Shown: in pieces, positions 445 to 8,710 of the stretch
Numbering within the stretch: position 1 is the stretch's first letter
How the letters are laid out: each line of letters opens with the position of its first letter
Origin: a virus
Lineage: Duplodnaviria > Heunggongvirae > Uroviricota > Caudoviricetes
DNA length: 8,710 nucleotides
Virus record (IMG/VR): IMGVR_UViG_2529292829_000011
Strand: one strand, 5' to 3'
Program-made: the position numbers and the translations under genes
Notes under the pieces: generated by a model
What the model was told of the DNA's origin: nothing
The model's database searches: none
Seen by the model: only the letters and a program-made list of their open reading frames with translations

Positions 445-3400
445 ATGGGTAAAGGAAGCAGTAAGGGGCATACCCCGCGCGAAGCGAAGGACAACCTGAA
501 GTCCACGCAGTTGCTGAGTGTGATCGATGCCATCAGCGAAGGGCCGGTTGAAGGTCCGGTGGATGGATTAAAAAGCGTGCTGCTGAACAGTACGCCGGTG
601 CTGGACACTGAGGGGAATACCAACATCGCCGGTGTCACGGTGGTGTTCCGTGCCGGTGAGCAGGAGCAGACTCCGCCGGAGGGATTTGAATCCTCCGGCT
701 CCGAGACGGTGTTGGGTACGGAAGTGAAATACGACACGCCGATCACCCGCGCCATCACGTCGGCAAACATCGACCGACTGCGCTTTACCTTCGGTGTGCA
801 GGCACTGGTGGAAACCACCTCAAAGGGGGACCGGAATCCGTCGGAAGTCCGCCTGCTGGTTCAGATACAACGTAACGGTGGCTGGGTGACGGAAAAAGAC
901 ATCACCATTAAGGGCAAAACCACCTCGCAGTATCTGGCCTCGGTGGTGGTGGATAACCTGCCGCCGCGCCCGTTTAATATCCGGATGCGCAGGATGACGC
1001 CGGACAGCACCACAGACCAGCTGCAGAACAAAACGCTCTGGTCGTCATACACCGAAATCATCGATGTGAAACAGTGCTACCCGAACACGGCACTGGTCGG
1101 CGTGCAGGTGGACTCGGAGCAGTTCGGCAGCCAGCAGGTGAGCCGTAATTATCATCTTCGCGGGCGCATTCTGCAGGTGCCGTCGAACTATAACCCGCAG
1201 ACGCGGCAATACAGCGGTATCTGGGACGGAACGTTTAAGCCAGCATACAGCAAAACATGGCCTGGTGTCTGTGGGATATGCTGACCCATCCCGCTACGGC
1301 ATGGGGAAACGTCTTGGTGCGGCGGATGTGGACAAATGGGCGCTGTATGTCATCGGCCAGTACTGCGACCAGTCAGTGCCGGACGGCTTTGGCGGCACGG
1401 AGCCGCGCATCACCTGTAATGCGTACCTGACCACACAGCGCAAGGCGTGGGATGTGCTCAGTGATTTCTGCTCGCGATGCGCTGTATGCGGTATGGAACG
1501 GGCAGACGCTGACGTTCGTGCAGGACCGACCGTCGGATAAGGTGTGGCCTATAACCGCAGTAATGTGGTGATGCCGGATGATGGGCGCCGTTCCGCTACA
1601 GTTCAGCGCCCTGAAGGACCGCCATAATGCCGTTGAGGTGAACTGGATTGACCCGATAACGGCTGGGAGACGGCGACAGAGCTTGTGAGAACGCAGGCCA
1701 TTGCCCGTTACGGTCGTAACGTCACGAAGATGGATGCCTTTGGCTGTACCAGCCGGGGGCAGGCACACCGCGCCGGGCTGTGGCTGATTAAAACGGAACT
1801 GCTGGAAACGCAGACCGTGGACTTCAGCGTGGGTGCGGAAGGGCTTCGCCATGTACCGGGCGATGTCATTGAAATCTGCGATGATGACTATGCCGGTATC
1901 AGCACCGGTGGGCGCGTGCTGGCGGTGAACAGCCAGACCCGGACGCTGACGCTCGACCGTGAAATCACGCTGCCATCCTCCGGTACCACGCTGATAAGCC
2001 TGGTTGACGGCAGGGATCCGGTCAGCGTGGAGGTCAGTCCGTCACCGACGGCGTGAAGGTAAAGTGAGCCGTGTTCCTGACGGGTTGCGAATACAGCGTT
2101 GGGGGCTGAAGTGCCGACGTGCGCCAGCGCTGTTCCGCTGCGTGAGTATCCGTGAGAACGACGACGGCACGTATGCCATCACCGCCGTGCAGCATGTCCG
2201 GAAAAAGAGCCATCGTGGATAACGGGGCGCACTTTGACGGCGACCAGAGCGGCACGGTGAATGGTGTCACGCCGCCAGCGGTGCAGCACTGACGCGAAGT
2301 CACCGCAGACAGCGGGGAATATCAGGTGCTGGCCGTGGGACACGCCGAAGGTGGTGAAGGGCGTGAGCTTCCTGCTTCGCCTGACCGTAGCAGCGGATGA
2401 CGGCCGTGAGCGGCTGGTCAGCACGGCCCGGACGACGGAAACCACTTACCGCTTCACACAACTGGCTCTGGGGAACTACAGGCTGACAGTCCGGGCAGTA
2501 AATGCGTGGGGGCAGCAGGGCGATCCTGCACCACCACCTTCCGGATTAACGCACCTGCAAAACCCGCCACCATTGAGCTGACGCCGGGGTATTTTCAGAT
2601 AACGGCGGTCCCGCGTCTTGCGGTGTATGACCCGACGGTACAGTTTGAATTCTGGTTCTCAGAAAAACGCATCACGAACACAGCACAGGTGGAAAAATCT
2701 GCCCGTTATCTGGGGGCCGGCAGTCAGTGGACTGTCCAGGGGAGCCGGATTAAGCCGGGGACGGATTTCTGGTTTTACGTGCGAAGCGTCAACCTGGTGG
2801 GAAAATCTGCTTTTGTGGAAGCCAGCGGGCAGCCCAGCAATGATGGTGAAGGGTATCTGGAAATTTTCCGGGGGCTGATAGATGAGACGCTTCTTGGTCA
2901 GGCACTGAAAGAGCGCATTGATGCTTCAGCGCTGCGTACGGAGGTCACGCAACTGGAAGAAGACATCCGTCAGCGGATGGACACGGATATCGCAGAAGTG
3001 ACCCGGAAAATCGGGAAGGCGGAAAACACTCTCACGCAGCTGGTTGCGAAAAAGAATGAGGACCAGGCACTGGCCATCGCGCAGGTGAACCAGAAAGTGG
3101 ACCGGGTGAGCAGTGAAATCTCACAGACTGTCAGCCAGGGGCAGTCAGAAAACGCCCGACAGATAGCACAGGTTCGCCAGTACGTGGATAAAAAAGGGAG
3201 TGAAATTACCTCGACCACGGATAAAAAGCTGGGTGATCAGGCCGTGACCATACAGCAAATCCAGCGGGTTCAGTCAGACACGCGCAATGAGCTGAATGCC
3301 ATGTATATGCTGAAGGTGCAGAAAACAAAAAACGGTATTCCCTATGTGGCCGGGATTGGGGCGGGGATTGAGGATGTTGATGGTCAGACCCTGAGTAACA

Positions 3401-4116
3401 TTCTGCTGCAGGCCGATCGCATTGCAATGATTACCCCGGAGAACGGTAACCCCACGCCGCTGTTTGTGGCGCAGGGGAATCAGCTGTTCATGAACGACGT
3501 GTTCCTGAAGCGACTGTTTGCGGTGAGCATCACGTCATCCGGTAATCCTCCGGCATTTTCCCTGACACCGGACGGGCGGCTGACGGCGAGAAATGCTGAT
3601 ATCAGCGGTAACGTTAATGCGAATTCCGGGACGCTCAACAACGTCACGATTAATCAGAACTGCCGGATCCTTGGAAAACTGTCAGCCAGCCATATTGAAG
3701 GCGATATTGTCAAAACGGTGGGTAAGGCTTTCCCGCGAAATGGAAGTTATGCCAGTGGCACGATAACCGTCACGGTTTATGATGATCAGGGATTCGACCG
3801 GCAGATTATCATTCCGCCGGTATTATTTCGTGGTACGAAACACCAGAATTTCAACAGTCATAACCAACAGTCATACTGGTATTCAACCTGTAAGCTGCAG
3901 GTACTGAAGAACGGACAGGAAATCTTTCAGCAACCCGCGACGGATGTCAGCAGGGTATTTTCATCCGTCATTGATATGCCTGCCGGACACGGCCATGTCA
4001 CCCTGACTTTCAATGTTTCTTCATATGGTGCTAATAAGTGGACGCCAACGACCAGTATCAGCGACCTTCTTGTTATTGTGATGAAGAAATCTACAGCCGG
4101 TATCAGTATCAGTTGA
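445..4116 (+). pseudogene. J: Host specificity protein J (tail tip / central tail fibre), disrupted by multiple frameshifts
   Basis: ATG at 445 is preceded by GAGG. The first 280 aa (frame 1, 445-1284) are near-identical to my recollection of the lambda J N-terminus (MGKGSSKGHTPREAKDNLKSTQLLSVIDAISEGP...). The J-like reading then continues in frame 2 (1265-1540, 1685-2056), frame 3 (2004-2222), frame 2 (2261-2581) and finally frame 1 (2506-4116, 536 aa, ending ...[15 protein letters not shown]). Codon-level reading shows short stretches in other frames in between (e.g. MAWCLWDMLTHP in frame 3 at 1257-1292). The 3672-nt span would encode about 1220 aa if intact. Confidence 0.85.
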
Positions 4117-4183: not shown

Positions 4184-4783
4184 ATGCGTAAATTATGTGC
4201 TGTTATTCTGTCCGCAGTAGTCTGGCTGGTTGCCGCTGGTACGCCAGCGAGCGCAGCAGAACATCAGTCCACGCTGAGCGCGGGGTATCTTCATGCCCGT
4301 ACGAACGCTCCCGGTAGTGATGATCTGAACGGGATTAACGTGAAATACCGTTATGAGTTTACGGACATGCTGGGTGTTGTGACGTCATTCAGTTATGCCA
4401 ATGCCAAAGATGAGCAAAAAACGCATTACAGCGATACCCGCTGGCATGAGGATTCCGTGCGTAACCGCGGGTTCAGTGTGATGGCGGGGCCGTCTGTTCG
4501 CGTGAATGAATGGTTCAGCGCGTATGCGATGGCGGGTATGGCTTACAGCCGTGTGTCGACTTTCTCCGGGGATTATATCCGCGTAACTGACAACAAGGGG
4601 AAAACGCACGATGTGCTGACCGGAAGTGATGACGGTCGCCACAGCAACACGTCTCTGGCGTGGGGAGCTGGCGTGCAGTTTAACCCGACCGAATCCGTGG
4701 CCATTGATATTGCTTATGAAGTCTCCGGCAGTGGCGACTGGCGCACTGACGGTTTCATCGTGGGTGTCGGTTATAAGTTCTGA
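4184..4783 (+). CDS. lom: Lom outer-membrane beta-barrel protein (Ail/Lom/OmpX family), lysogenic-conversion-type moron
   Basis: 199-aa ORF with GAGAGG 7-12 nt upstream of the ATG. N-terminus is a signal peptide (MRKLCAVILSAVVWLVAAGTPASA/AEHQ). Near-identical over its length to my recollection of lambda Lom (STLSAGYLHA.TNAPGSDDLNGINVKYRYEFTD...SVMAGPSVRVNEWFSAYAMAG...GFIVGVGYKF), with a C-terminal aromatic residue typical of OM beta-barrels. Confidence 0.93.
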   Translation: MRKLCAVILSAVVWLVAAGTPASAAEHQSTLSAGYLHARTNAPGSDDLNGINVKYRYEFTDMLGVVTSFSYANAKDEQKTHYSDTRWHEDSVRNRGFSVMAGPSVRVNEWFSAYAMAGMAYSRVSTFSGDYIRVTDNKGKTHDVLTGSDDGRHSNTSLAWGAGVQFNPTESVAIDIAYEVSGSGDWRTDGFIVGVGYKF

Positions 4784-4814
4784 TTAGCCAGGTAACACAG
4801 TGTTATGACAGCAT

Positions 4815-4840
4815 GCCTGTTCAATCAGGCGGGCTTTTTT
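4815..4840 (+). terminator. Weak terminator-like hairpin downstream of lom
   Basis: GCCTG (4815-4819), loop TTCAAT, CAGGC (4826-4830), then GGGCTTTTTT (4831-4840). Only a 5-bp stem, with 4 nt between stem and T-run, so modest. Confidence 0.35.
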
Positions 4841-4851
4841 GTGGGGTGAAT

Positions 4852-7800
4852 ATGGCAGTAAAGATTTCAGGTGTACTGAAAGATGGGGCGGGTAAACCTG
4901 TCGTAAATTGTGCGATTGAACTGCGGGCCAGAAGAACCAGCCCGACCGTTGTGGCGCACGTTGTCGCCACTTGTGTGACGGACAATAACGGTGCTTATGT
5001 GATTGAGGCTGAGCCGGGGTATTACGAGGTTGCGCTTCACCGTAACGGCTGGCAGCCAACCCGTGTCGGGGATATTTATGTGGCACCGACTGATGCACCG
5101 GGGACACTGAATGCGTTTCTGGATGCACCAAAGGATAGTGATTTACGTCCGGAGGTGATGAAGCGCTTTGAGGAAATGGTGGATGCGGTTGCCCGGCAGT
5201 CGGAGCAGGTCACCAATGATCGTGAAAGGGCAGAGGCGGTAGCGGAGGCAGCAACAAACGCAGCGAACTCTGCTCTTGACAGTAAAAATAAGGCAGAAGA
5301 TCTAAAAAATAAGGCACAGCAAAATGCCGAAGCCGCTGCAGAAAGCGAACGACAGGCCGGGCAACATGTCGCTGATGCGCAGAAGATTAAGGGGGATTGC
5401 CAGACGCTGGCGGATAACGTACAGCAGAATGCAGAATCCGTTGCCGAAGATAAAAAGCAGGTGGCACAGCTGGCATCATCTGCCACACAGGATGCGGCCA
5501 GCGCAGAGCAGGCTGTCAAGGATGCTGACTCGATAGTCCGGAAAGCGGTCGATAAACTCGGTGAAGCTGCAACGCTGACCGGCGAGGCAAAAGCCAGCGC
5601 CGAAGCGGCAGCAAAAAGCGAACAGAACGCGAAACAGCACAGGGACGAGGCGCAACGGATAGTTGATGACCTGAAGGGAAGCAATGCTTCCACGACAGAA
5701 AAAGGCCTGGTGCAACTCTGTAGTGATACGGACAACGACAGCGAAGAACTGGCAGCCACACCGAAGGCCGTCAAAACCGTCATGGACGAGACGAAAACAA
5801 AAGCGCCGCTGGACAGCCCGGCATTCACCGGCACGCCCACCACACCAACCCCACCGGACGATGCTGCCGGTCTGGAAACAGCGAACGCGGCATTTGTCCG
5901 CAAACTGCTCGCTGCACTGGTTGACTCGTCACCGGAGGCCCTGGACACGCTGAACGAGCTGGCAGCGGCGCTGGGAAATGACCCGAATTTTGCGACGACA
6001 GTCACCAAAGCACTGGCAGGGAAACAGCCACTCAGTGACGTGTTAACCGCAATCAGTAATCTGGAAGAACGGGCAGATAATCTTCTGTGCTTTAATCAGG
6101 ACGGAAATGCTTCACTGTCTCCACTGTCAGAAAAAGCCCGGTCACTGCTGGCACAGGCCACAGTGGAAGCTATGCGCAATGAGCTTGAGCTGAAAAGCGC
6201 AGCGGTAATGGATATTCAGACAGACATTCACGACAGCACGAAAGGCCGCATTGCGCTTCCCGGTGCGTATGGTTACGGAATGACGGACGCCGGAGCGCGT
6301 TCAATTATTGCCAGCGATATGGCGACTGTAGCCAGAACCGCTCACAACCTGCACCCGGGACGCTATTACACCTTTGCCACACGAACGGAAGAAACAACCG
6401 GGATAACAGAAATTATCTGGCTGGATAATGGCCGGGCCGACAAAACCAGCCAGACAGCAACAAAGCTGGTTCTGTTTTTTGGAAAAGACGGACGGATTCT
6501 TATGACCGTTCGTGGCGATAATATCTCCGCCCCGGTCACCTGGACGAATCTGACGCCACAACTTGGCAATGCAGCACAGAAGGATGCGCAGGAGAATATT
6601 TACGACCGCACCGAAGGCCGTCTGGCGATTCCCGGCATGTTTGGATTCGGGAAAGTATTTTTCATCGGCGACAGGACCGAGTTTAAAACAGAGGCCGATT
6701 TTCTCCGCTGGGTAAAAACGGCAAATCCCGGACGCTATGCCGTTTATGCAGATACAAATGCGGTAATACAGGGCGTGCTGTTCAAGGGTACCGTTGAAAT
6801 TATCTGGCCGGAACCTCAAATCAGCCATGATACGGCATATGTGGCCAAAATCATTATTTTTTACGGTATTAACGGTCATATTTATTACAATCGCTACTGG
6901 ACTACCGGAGGTGGTTATCTGGTTGGCTGGGAAAACCTGAAAGTCAACGAGGCTTCACTCCGGGCACTGATTGAAACCCGAGCGCCACTGAACAGTCCGG
7001 CACTGACCGGAACGCCGTCCACGCCAACACCACCGGATGATGCAGCAGGTAATGAAATAGCCAATGCGGCGTTTGTCCGCAAACTGCTCGCCACGCTGGT
7101 TGGCTCATCACCGGAAGCCCTGGACACGCTGAACGAGCTGGCAGCGGCACTGGGCAATGACCCGAACTTTGCGACAACCGTCACTAATGCACTGGCAGGG
7201 AAACAGCCGCTTAATGACGTGTTAACGGCTGTCAGCAAGATAACACCGGAAGAAAACACACTGCCCTATTTCAGTGCAGATGGCAGGATTTTACTGGCGC
7301 AGTTGTCAGAAAAAGCCCGCGCATTACTGGCACTGGACACACCTGAAGCCATGCGCACGGAGCTTGAACTGAAAGCGGCTGCGACGATGGAACCCCAGAG
7401 CGATATCCGCGACCGCACACCGGGCAGACTGGCACTGTCCGGCATGCATGGATTCGGTCAGGCATTCACCAGTGCCGACGCTCTGACATTTAACGGGCAG
7501 GCCGATTTTGTTGAATGGCTGAAAAAGGCCGCCCCGGGGCGTTATGCGGTCAGTATTGCGGACTCTTCCATGCTGCTGGTTGGCACCAAGAAATTTAACG
7601 GCACCATTGATGTGATGTGGTCGCCCTTTGATAACGATGAGTCGGACACAATACGAAAATTCAAAACACTGCTGTGTTTTAACCAGTATTACGAAGGTGA
7701 GCATAGTATTCATTTCCTGACTTACCGCTTTAGTGGAAACAACTGGAATGCAACAGTAAGCCCTGTCATTTACGACGGCGATTCGCTGGCGTTCTTACTG

Positions 7801-8112
7801 TCCCGGACAGCAGGCTCAGGCTCATATTTCAAATACCCGGCAGTGGGTGTTCCAGTGCTGGCTGTTTATCGCGGAACAACTTCCGGGGATAAAGAAATCA
7901 ATATTGGCCTGGGTGATGTGGTGCAGGGGTCACAACTGGGCGGAGTTAATCTTTCGTGCTTAATATCTTCTGCTGGGGTTGGCTCCTACAATTCCGCACC
8001 GAGTGCAGGAGCTACAGGGTACACTTTCCCGGGGCGTTATATGGCGCTATCCGGGGTCAGGGACTCTAAAGGAATAACCGGTCGTATCTGCCTGTTTGTG
8101 CGCATCGAGTAA
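4852..8112 (+). CDS. stf: Side tail fibre protein (Stf-like), long modular variant
   Basis: Frame 1 ORF 4813-8112. I prefer the ATG at 4852 (MAVKISGVLKDGAGKPV...), because the lambda Stf N-terminus as I recall it begins MAVKISGVLKDG and a G-rich stretch precedes it. The ATG at 4813 lies inside the lom terminator hairpin. The N-terminal ~110 aa are lambda-Stf-like, followed by an Ala/Glu/Lys/Gln-rich coiled coil (about 5200-5700) and two conserved tail-fibre boxes (KAPLDSPAFTGTPTTPTPPDDAAG... and RAPLNSPALTGTPSTPTPPDDAAG...), each followed by ...ALDTLNELAAALGNDPNFATTVT.ALAGKQPL. Confidence 0.9.
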   Translation: MAVKISGVLKDGAGKPVVNCAIELRARRTSPTVVAHVVATCVTDNNGAYVIEAEPGYYEVALHRNGWQPTRVGDIYVAPTDAPGTLNAFLDAPKDSDLRPEVMKRFEEMVDAVARQSEQVTNDRERAEAVAEAATNAANSALDSKNKAEDLKNKAQQNAEAAAESERQAGQHVADAQKIKGDCQTLADNVQQNAESVAEDKKQVAQLASSATQDAASAEQAVKDADSIVRKAVDKLGEAATLTGEAKASAEAAAKSEQNAKQHRDEAQRIVDDLKGSNASTTEKGLVQLCSDTDNDSEELAATPKAVKTVMDETKTKAPLDSPAFTGTPTTPTPPDDAAGLETANAAFVRKLLAALVDSSPEALDTLNELAAALGNDPNFATTVTKALAGKQPLSDVLTAISNLEERADNLLCFNQDGNASLSPLSEKARSLLAQATVEAMRNELELKSAAVMDIQTDIHDSTKGRIALPGAYGYGMTDAGARSIIASDMATVARTAHNLHPGRYYTFATRTEETTGITEIIWLDNGRADKTSQTATKLVLFFGKDGRILMTVRGDNISAPVTWTNLTPQLGNAAQKDAQENIYDRTEGRLAIPGMFGFGKVFFIGDRTEFKTEADFLRWVKTANPGRYAVYADTNAVIQGVLFKGTVEIIWPEPQISHDTAYVAKIIIFYGINGHIYYNRYWTTGGGYLVGWENLKVNEASLRALIETRAPLNSPALTGTPSTPTPPDDAAGNEIANAAFVRKLLATLVGSSPEALDTLNELAAALGNDPNFATTVTNALAGKQPLNDVLTAVSKITPEENTLPYFSADGRILLAQLSEKARALLALDTPEAMRTELELKAAATMEPQSDIRDRTPGRLALSGMHGFGQAFTSADALTFNGQADFVEWLKKAAPGRYAVSIADSSMLLVGTKKFNGTIDVMWSPFDNDESDTIRKFKTLLCFNQYYEGEHSIHFLTYRFSGNNWNATVSPVIYDGDSLAFLLSRTAGSGSYFKYPAVGVPVLAVYRGTTSGDKEINIGLGDVVQGSQLGGVNLSCLISSAGVGSYNSAPSAGATGYTFPGRYMALSGVRDSKGITGRICLFVRIE
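5806..6290 (+). repeat. Intragenic direct repeat, copy 1 (conserved tail-fibre box module inside stf)
   Basis: About 480 nt that re-occur at 6985-7460 with high nucleotide similarity (by eye roughly 85% over the first 260 nt, including identical runs such as TTTGTCCGCAAACTGCTCGC and CCCTGGACACGCTGAACGAGCTGGCAGCGGC). Copy spacing is 1179 nt (393 codons), so the repeat is in frame. Confidence 0.8.
6985..7460 (+). repeat. Intragenic direct repeat, copy 2 (conserved tail-fibre box module inside stf)
   Basis: Second copy of the module described at 5806-6290; encodes APLNSPALTGTPSTPTPPDDAAGNEIANAAFVRKLLATLVGSSPEALDTLNELAAALGNDPNFATTVTNALAGKQPLNDVLTAV...SEKARALLA...EAMRTELELKAAATME. Confidence 0.8.
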
Positions 8113-8125
8113 CGGGGAATAAAAC

Positions 8126-8710
8126 ATGAAAATCAGAGCGGTAAAGGGCATCAGAAACGCCCATTATCTTGAAAATGGTGCGGTTGACTGCGAGGTGTTA
8201 TTTGAAGGTGAAACGGAATTCGTCCCGTATACCGCCATGCAGGATGATACCGCACCGACAGGCCAGCGCATCTGGGAAGAGTTGCAGAACGGCAAATGGG
8301 GCGAAATCGCCCCTTTCACTGTCACGCCGGAACTTATCGCCGCGGCGAAGGATGCCAAAAAGCAGGAAATCGAGGCATGGCGCACAGAACAGGAAGCACT
8401 GCCGTTCACCTTTGAATGGAACGGTCGCACCTGGAACGCTGGCCCCGACTCAATGGCCCGTCTTTATCCGGTAGTAATGGCGGCGAAATCCGATACGGCA
8501 CGAACCGCCCTTGCATGGGGTGATGCCGATAATCAACAGGTGAAACTGTCAATGCCGGAACTGGAAGAACTGGCGGCAGCAATGGCGCAGGCGCAGCTCG
8601 ATCGCAATGACGAGATTTATCGACGTCAGCGGGAGATGAAGGAAGAACTGAATAATCTGGAGGATTTGGGTTCAATCAGGAAACTGGTCGTTAGCTCAGA
8701 AAAACCTTGA
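8126..8710 (+). CDS. Tail-fibre-associated protein of uncertain function (occupies the tfa position; not a canonical lambda Tfa)
   Basis: Complete 194-aa ORF starting 13 nt after the stf stop, with its TGA at 8708-8710, the last three bases of the window. Same length and position as lambda tfa, but the translation does not resemble lambda Tfa as I recall it and lacks the C-terminal W..Y..L..RVD....WP motif of that chaperone family. The C-terminal half is acidic and helix-prone (ELEELAAAMAQAQLDRNDEIYRRQREMKEELNNLEDL). It reminds me of a family of unknown function (DUF4376-type) seen next to enterobacterial prophage fibre genes, but I cannot confirm that without a search. Confidence 0.6.
   Translation: MKIRAVKGIRNAHYLENGAVDCEVLFEGETEFVPYTAMQDDTAPTGQRIWEELQNGKWGEIAPFTVTPELIAAAKDAKKQEIEAWRTEQEALPFTFEWNGRTWNAGPDSMARLYPVVMAAKSDTARTALAWGDADNQQVKLSMPELEELAAAMAQAQLDRNDEIYRRQREMKEELNNLEDLGSIRKLVVSSEKP

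Follow-up and report, generated by a model that had tools for sequence, protein, structure and literature searches.

How does a single phage fibre gene come to carry the same module twice, and what has become of the two copies since? The question is raised by stf, the side tail fibre gene in an 8,710-nucleotide stretch of DNA (hereafter the window) from IMG/VR record IMGVR_UViG_2529292829_000011, assigned to the Caudoviricetes. The window covers the distal end of the tail module of a lambdoid prophage. A sequence-only reading, made without database searches, had described an in-frame 1.18-kb segmental duplication of a conserved fibre box within stf, with two distal units fused head to tail behind a lambda-like anchor and the repeats serving as recombination joints. 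The analysis reported here leads to a related but different answer: stf most probably encodes a modular fibre with two paralogous distal units, which go back to an old duplication or fusion and have kept a stable layout, and in which the box acts as a patch of homology.

The two box copies and their age

The copies are direct and in frame, at 5800-6207 and 6979-7386, 1179 nucleotides (nt; 393 codons) apart. A repeat finder paired 5795-6059 with 6974-7238 (84% identity, spacing 1179 nt), blastn paired 5802-6239 with 6981-7418 (76%, E 1e-89), and blastp of copy against copy gave 52% identity across ~260 amino acids (aa; E 5e-74). The sequence-only reading had placed the module at 5806-6290 and 6985-7460 with ~85% nt identity; global alignment of these two segments gave 75% identity (z = 34.7 against 200 shuffles), and all three peptide motifs that it quoted are found in both copies. 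The copies are therefore where they were said to be, but they match at 84% over the first 255 nt only.

Divergence between the copies is strongly graded. The left edge of homology is sharp, at codons 317 and 710 (nt 5800 and 6979), and the right edge fades into the following domain, termed the knob (30% aa). In a codon-wise comparison, the box core (85 codons; 5800-6054 versus 6979-7233, 255 nt) is 84% identical in nt and 87% in aa, with a synonymous divergence (dS) of 0.54; the box tail (51 codons, 153 nt) is 61% identical in nt and 53% in aa, with dS of 1.3; and the domain after the box retains 30% aa identity, its synonymous sites being saturated. In the second half of each period, knob D2 and the C-terminal tip are non-homologous (23% aa), and the homologous share of the period amounts to only ~260 of 393 codons. 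One feature of a tandem duplication is thus present, namely direct, in-frame copies of which the second starts at the end of the first unit, and another is absent, namely a whole period duplicated with near-uniform divergence. The 1.18 kb is the spacing of the copies, not the length of duplicated DNA, and the proposal of a single uniform 1.18-kb duplication at ~85% has to be abandoned, half of each period not being duplicated. The copies are perfectly identical over at most 32 consecutive nt (5938-5969 = 7117-7148), which encode ALDTLNELAAA. Neither Rfam nor Tandem Repeats Finder reported anything in or around the repeat.

The layout extends well beyond this genome. A search with stf residues 315-1086 returned 7987 matches, and in all of the 120 best clusters (90%-identity clusters, 82-100% identical to the query), from E. 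coli, E. marmotae, E. albertii and Salmonella, the box occurs twice, 391-394 aa apart; the same layout was found in 18 IMG/VR prophage loci. Across genes, mean aa identity was 97% between first copies and 88% between second copies, whereas copy 1 matched copy 2 at 71%; for the cores of 19 two-box genes, the corresponding nt identities were 0.92, 0.91 and 0.806. The values for copy 1 against copy 2 were the same within one gene and between genes. Because first copies and second copies each group across genes, the copies were already distinct in the family ancestor and have not been globally homogenized. Global concerted evolution was accordingly rejected, own-gene and cross-gene identities between copy 1 and copy 2 being equal, and short patches alone being converted. 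The two-box layout is thus an old, conserved architecture of the family, neither recent nor local. Of the earlier picture of two fused distal units, the paralogy of the box-knob units stands; the layout is not peculiar to this genome, being present in more than 120 protein clusters.

Ratios of nonsynonymous to synonymous polymorphism (pN/pS) of 0.12-0.47 in the segments of stf, all below 0.5, point to purifying selection on every segment. Conservation is strongest in the boxes (pN 0.025-0.033); D2 (pN 0.14), the box 2 tail and the tip (pN 0.15) are the most variable parts of two-box genes (range 0.12-0.15).

The box itself is widespread. In a 1.84-billion-protein representative library, box 1 was matched by 18,503 representative proteins at E <= 1e-3. 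At least two copies are present in 129 of the 150 best-scoring representatives, most commonly 70-80 residues apart, with 121 of 395 spacings of at least 200 residues; the ranking favours multi-copy proteins, and these box counts are not estimates of prevalence. Common as it is among fibre proteins, the box module is apparently without a curated domain model in the library copies used (Pfam, NCBIfam).

Single-box relatives and exchange at the boxes

One- and two-module forms of the gene both occur in otherwise collinear prophages. With B for box and K for knob, the architectures in 59 related prophage loci from a scan of IMG/VR were BKKBK in 18, BK in ~22, BKK in ~6, KBK in 4 and BBB in 2. Four candidates for three-box expansion, suggested by long match spans (L052, L053, L055 and L058), proved to be one-box genes behind another fibre gene.

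The stf-like tail3 of phage Rac-SA53 (1061 aa) has two boxes, and gp69 of 'Actinobacillus phage vB_Apl-pPE4' (667 aa) is collinear with it, minus exactly 1182 nt. At informative sites, gp69 follows Rac-SA53 copy 1 up to locus position 3632 and copy 2 from 3656, with the switch inside the LDTLNELAA codons; this junction maps to codons homologous to the 32-nt identical block of the window. Loci L037 and L057 share with the window the J-lom context and the D3-tip-DUF4376 end (89-92% nt), and lack one period. In L042, 76 of 76 informative sites agree with window copy 1 on the left and 128 of 129 with copy 2 on the right. The switch lies at 5924-5928 in L042 and at 5928-5937 in L037 and L057, in both cases just upstream of the 32-nt block. 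Diagnostic sites defined on all 19 two-box genes place the junctions of single boxes in at least three classes, at 5826-5859, 5883-6060 and 6097-6141, the last within the box 1 tail; single boxes of pure copy-1 and pure copy-2 type also exist. Because the partition into left and right is clean at diverged sites, where an ancestral box would be interspersed, the one-box genes are derived recombinants of box 1 and box 2. As to the pPE4 record itself (PP818812, L003), its fibre region and integrase end are collinear with Rac-SA53 (L002) at 89-96% nt, and its assignment to Actinobacillus pleuropneumoniae as host looks doubtful.

A different kind of exchange is seen at box 2. The window and Rac-SA53 are 85-98% identical in nt from the coiled coil to the box 2 core (core 85%), then 73% in the box 2 tail, and beyond box 2 only 46% in D3 (36% aa) and 40% in the tip. 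Since D3 and the tip have diverged while the box 2 core and the downstream DUF4376 gene are conserved, they form a variable distal cassette bracketed by two conserved segments. The tip occurs in at least three types, ~30% identical to one another; the DUF4376 protein is 73-95% identical in aa across all stf variants, and its N-terminal stretch varies with tip type. The suggestion that the box is a recombination joint is thus borne out twice over, by single-box relatives that are clean copy-1/copy-2 chimeras and by the distal unit of Rac-SA53, swapped at box 2.

Smaller, conversion-like tracts are also seen. The copy-2-type patch in box 1 of the window (Table 1) is shared with copy 1 of L015 and L019 and is likely to be a gene-conversion tract, and copy 2 of Rac-SA53 contains a long copy-1 tract. 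Because of such conversion-like patches, the copies of the window stand high in the identity range (0.839). Phage Rad52-like recombinases are reported to recombine diverged stf regions independently of RecA (PMC3945230), which makes exchanges between boxes plausible at 16-20% divergence.

Origin of the two-unit fibre

The observed paralogy of the units, their conservation and the purifying selection acting on them suggest the following course. Long ago, box-knob units of the stf fibre family would have been duplicated or fused head to tail to give two distal units, and this layout would then have been passed on, stable and under selection. The box core, as the most constrained part of the protein, would have kept its DNA identity and so have become a portable patch of homology. 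The chimeric one-box derivatives and mosaic breakpoints found here would reflect exchange of box 1 with box 2, inside a single gene or across two genes, which would remove exactly one 1179-nt period and leave a single chimeric box; exchange at box 2 and at the conserved DUF4376 gene would swap the receptor-binding tip; and short conversion tracts may pass occasionally between the boxes. In the fibre itself, Stf would be a trimer anchored by its N-terminal domain, the boxes presumably serving as connectors of the shaft and the knobs as globular beads, to judge from where they lie and from the solved fibre proteins to which anchor and box are homologous. We infer the trimeric state, the receptor-binding function of the tip and the agency of phage or host homologous recombination enzymes.

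Other histories were weighed against this one. A recent and unstable duplication, or an error of assembly, confined to this genome can hardly account for the two boxes. The record is of doubtful quality, with ~24-30 single-base deletions in J relative to near-identical prophages, and at least 80% of the gene is covered by megablast in only 2 of 5426 complete E. coli genomes; against this, an identical 1086-aa protein is called in six independent draft E. coli assemblies, two boxes occur in strain A36 (complete genome), in Rac-SA53, in the 18 IMG/VR loci and in the 120 clusters from several species, and nucleotide differences between the copies amount to 16-24%, each copy having its orthologues in other genes. 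The six assemblies with the identical protein and the conservation of the layout in clusters and loci refute such an origin. Only slightly better placed is the reverse of the proposed direction, in which the one-box gene would be ancestral and two-box genes would have arisen repeatedly by unequal crossing-over at the box. One-box loci are at least as numerous as two-box loci in IMG/VR (~22 versus 18), and unequal exchange is the reciprocal of deletion. The single boxes, however, are cleanly split at diverged sites, copy 1 on the left and copy 2 on the right, and, judged by identity, each of the two copies forms a monophyletic group across the 19 genes, which indicates a single origin; we regard repeated gain as very improbable.

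A stronger competitor, though still an unlikely one, is the joining of two unrelated box-bearing fibre genes, with the similarity of the boxes reflecting universal conservation of the motif. The sheer number of box-bearing representative proteins would allow it, a 120-nt sub-core is as close to element b2 of phage P1 (86%) as to the other copy, possible parent genes of BKK and BK type both exist, and the knob-linker-box joint occurs also in the unrelated phages Goslar and Av-05. Taken over all 255 nt of the core, by contrast, the copies are 81-84% identical to each other but only 58-65% identical to P1 or Goslar (65% to the P1 b2 box, 58-61% to the Goslar box), and homology runs on through the 51-aa tail into the knob. 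This core identity and the homology into tail and knob argue for one parent or two closely related parents rather than unrelated ones, and the core comparison speaks for true paralogues, or for closely related units that fused, rather than for separate captures from unrelated fibres.

An old duplication or fusion followed by exchange at the boxes remains our preferred account, and several points weigh against it. Duplication in situ and fusion of two related genes predict the same sequence today. The graded dS (0.54, 1.3, saturated) does not fit one simple event and calls for later homogenization of the core, which is documented only in part. Deletion by RecA would be inefficient with 32 nt as the longest perfect identity. 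The repeats had been proposed as a substrate for both deletion and expansion; relatives with one period deleted bear out the former, but no three-box expansion was found in the 59 IMG/VR loci. On the structural side, AlphaFold2 models of aa 315-710 and 700-1086, each from a 43-sequence alignment, reached predicted local distance difference test scores (pLDDT) of 41 and 40, too poor for a fold search, and the names 'knob', 'shaft' and 'tip' reflect sequence pattern and position.

A functional extension of the same account seems improbable to us: the knob pair, and especially the fast-evolving D2, might be a second ligand-binding site, making the fibre bivalent, and recombination at the box would then toggle between a long bivalent and a short monovalent form as a host-range switch.

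Parts of the protein, neighbouring genes and known systems

From its sequence, stf appears to be laid out as anchor, coiled coil, Phage_fiber_2 repeat, box 1-D1-D2, linker and box 2-D3-tip (Table 1). The lambda-like anchor proposed earlier is supported: stf is a gene of lambda type by its PF08400 match and its place downstream of J and lom, and residues 1-92 match a solved chain, PDB 9e7m 'Tail fiber protein' (E 4e-21). The coiled-coil shaft varies in length among homologues. The box 1 core matches PDB 9d93, the gp4 tail collar fibre. The linker at 6940-6978 does not resemble what precedes box 1. The C-terminal tip is presumed, from its position, to be the receptor-binding end.

Table 1 Features of the window and parts of the stf protein
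Feature	Position	Strand	Basis or remark
J	445-4116		split into several open reading frames (ORFs)
lom	4184-4783		Ail_Lom, E 2.7e-123
stf, side tail fibre gene	4852..8112	+	1086 aa from ATG 4852; ORF list
N-terminal anchor (phage_tail_N), aa 1-131	4852..5244	+	PF08400, E 2.7e-42, 144 bits versus cut-off 26.6
Ala/Glu/Gln-rich shaft, presumably coiled coil, aa 132-279	5245..5688	+	composition
Phage_fiber_2 repeat, aa 280-319	5689..5808	+	PF03406, E 2.7e-15; matches Mu tail fibre S structures 5yvq, 8ju3
Box 1 core, aa 317-401 (APLDSPAFTGTP ... LDTLNELAAALGNDPNFATT ... AGKQPL)	5800..6054	+	84% nt/87% aa to box 2 core
Copy-2-type patch in box 1, NFATTVT for the family's EFATTIM	6001..6027	+	flanked by copy-1-type sites 5928, 6030
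Box 1 tail, aa 402-452 (... LSEKAR.LLA ... EAMR.ELELK.AA)	6055..6207	+	61% nt/53% aa to box 2 tail
Knob D1, aa 453-570 (D.T.GR.A.PG..G.G ... PGRY ... EIIW ... W.NL)	6208..6561	+	aligns with D2, D3
Knob D2, aa 571-696	6562..6939	+	third copy of knob
Linker, aa 697-709 (KVNEASLRALIETR)	6940..6978	+	between knob D2 and box 2
Box 2 core, aa 710-794	6979..7233	+	repeat finder, blastn, codon-wise comparison
Box 2 tail, aa 795-845	7234..7386	+	codon-wise comparison
Knob D3, aa 846-972	7387..7767	+	30% aa to D1, 38% to D2
C-terminal tip, aa 973-1086	7768..8109	+	unrelated to D2
DUF4376 gene	8126..8710	+	194 aa; directly 3' of stf; Pfam PF14301, E 1.6e-16

The knob is present three times (D1, D2 and D3), starting with D.T.GR.A.PG..G.G and containing PGRY. 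A profile from the knob alignment gave chance matches alone (E > 0.01) against PDB sequences, Pfam at E up to 10 had no match for the knobs or the box module, and an NCBIfam scan of the whole stf protein returned one spurious coiled-coil match and no family covering box or knob. Among 50,697 phage records, the knob was seen in only 13, including virulent Av-05 and jumbo phage Goslar. Over 221 nt of knob D1 (6271-6491), identity to a fibre gene of Av-05, a virulent member of the Vequintavirinae, reaches 80.6%, and the knob-linker-box joint is found also in Goslar gp090 (knob-bearing loci L012 3117-4754 and L013 2982-6956); temperate and virulent E. coli phages therefore share fibre modules.

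Genes in the window follow the order end of gene I, J, lom, stf and DUF4376 gene, and the intact copies L007 and L008 show the full lambda-like order of tail genes. An in-frame ATG at 4813 would add 13 codons (4813-4851) to stf; the start was placed at 4852 because all homologues and called genes begin MAVKISG. The DUF4376 gene occupies the slot of a tail fibre assembly gene. In a Pfam scan, its 194-aa product matched DUF4376 (PF14301) alone and no tail fibre assembly family, and PHROGs labels its family 'tail fiber protein'; judged by the position of its gene, it would be a chaperone that aids the tip.

J carries ~24 single-base deletions (24-30 relative to near-identical prophages) and a few of 2-3 nt within 1.3 kb, at 1254-2540. 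It is intact, at 1232-1233 aa, in L007 and L008 (near-identical prophages, 99% nt) and in the E. coli reference L006, and stf and lom are free of deletions of this type; the damage looks like a local sequencing or assembly error, or decay limited to J. On the minus strand, an ORF of 310 aa with much Ser, Ala and Cys (5076-6008) runs antisense to the region encoding the Ala-rich coiled coil and box 1; GCN-rich codons on the sense strand most likely give rise to it.

In the assemblies that share the identical protein, the prophage adjoins the hya operon. The same stf-DUF4376 end adjoins hyaA at the same distance (~655 nt) in two prophage types (L001 5667-10063 versus L007 10001-14515), one lambdoid with J-lom, the window's type, and the other with a Mu-like baseplate (E. 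coli A36; a tRNA-Ser is annotated in the gap). Either different phages with a common distal end occupy one site, or a resident remnant has recombined onto incoming phages. Many database copies of the stf protein carry the source name 'shikimate transporter' (P0015, P0016, P0033, P0034, P0037 and many others), evidently a misannotation that has spread across NCBI records.

A close known parallel is gene S of phage P1, in whose constant part, Sc, 'repeated elements b1 and b2' are annotated in NC_005856 (Sandmeier, Iida and Arber 1992, as cited in PMC3945230, ref. 73). Gene S, like stf, carries the same box twice in frame, each copy starting KAP(L/I).SP and containing LDTL.E.AAA..NDPN(F/Y). P1 b2 is 85.8% identical to stf box 2 over 120 nt (b2 of P7 gene S likewise, 86%) and 80.6% to box 1 over 124 nt. 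In P1, however, the two 74-aa boxes stand directly in tandem, with a period of 222 nt and an nt identity of only 60%, whereas those of stf are 393 codons apart, with two knobs between them and an extra 51-aa tail on each.

With lambda Stf and Rac StfR, stf shares the PF08400 anchor (PDB 9e7m residues 1-92, a 49-aa-level match), the Phage_fiber_2 repeat and the place after J and lom; megablast matches of stfR genes to the window's stf cover the first 60-80 nt only. The distal box-knob part and the DUF4376 gene of the window probably differ from the lambda tip and its Tfa. Two boxes in the same arrangement are also found in tail3 of Rac-SA53 (KU052037) and in the fibre of E. coli A36 (WP_240745489), with overall aa identities of 65% and 79%, respectively. 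Unlike the window's stf, these are second fibre genes placed after Mu-like baseplate genes and carry an anchor of another subtype (48-49% aa); Rac-SA53 differs further in its D3 and tip. The literature on PDB entry 9d93 and on Rac-SA53 yielded nothing useful.

The T4 adhesin gp37 offers a parallel in concept. Small-domain duplications in it and recombination between 'His box' motifs have been reported (Tetart et al. 1996, 1998, as cited in PMC3157838, refs. 47-48). As in stf, conserved motifs in a fibre gene serve as sites for duplicating, deleting and swapping receptor-binding segments, with changes of host range. The motif and protein family are different, and in T4 the effect on host range was demonstrated experimentally, whereas stf is known from sequence footprints. 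Papers of 1989-1994 described how fibre segments pass horizontally between P1, P2, Mu, lambda and T-even phages (as cited in PMC3945230, refs. 71-74).

Set beside these systems, the stf repeat reveals no new kind of system. The stf family is a clean natural example of conserved shaft motifs as splice points in phage fibre genes, bringing together within one family a two-box parent form, derivatives that lack precisely one period and whose junctions are mapped, swapped tips and short tracts of conversion. As a fusion point that occurs naturally and is tolerated, the box core could be useful for engineering the host range of lambdoid Stf. Two fibre elements are flagged that have no curated domain model, one a very common box and the other a knob limited to a few Escherichia phages. 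Repeated boxes were already known from P1, and the shuffling of fibre segments from P1, T4 and other phages; what is specific to stf is the box-knob-knob-box-knob layout and the knob domain itself.

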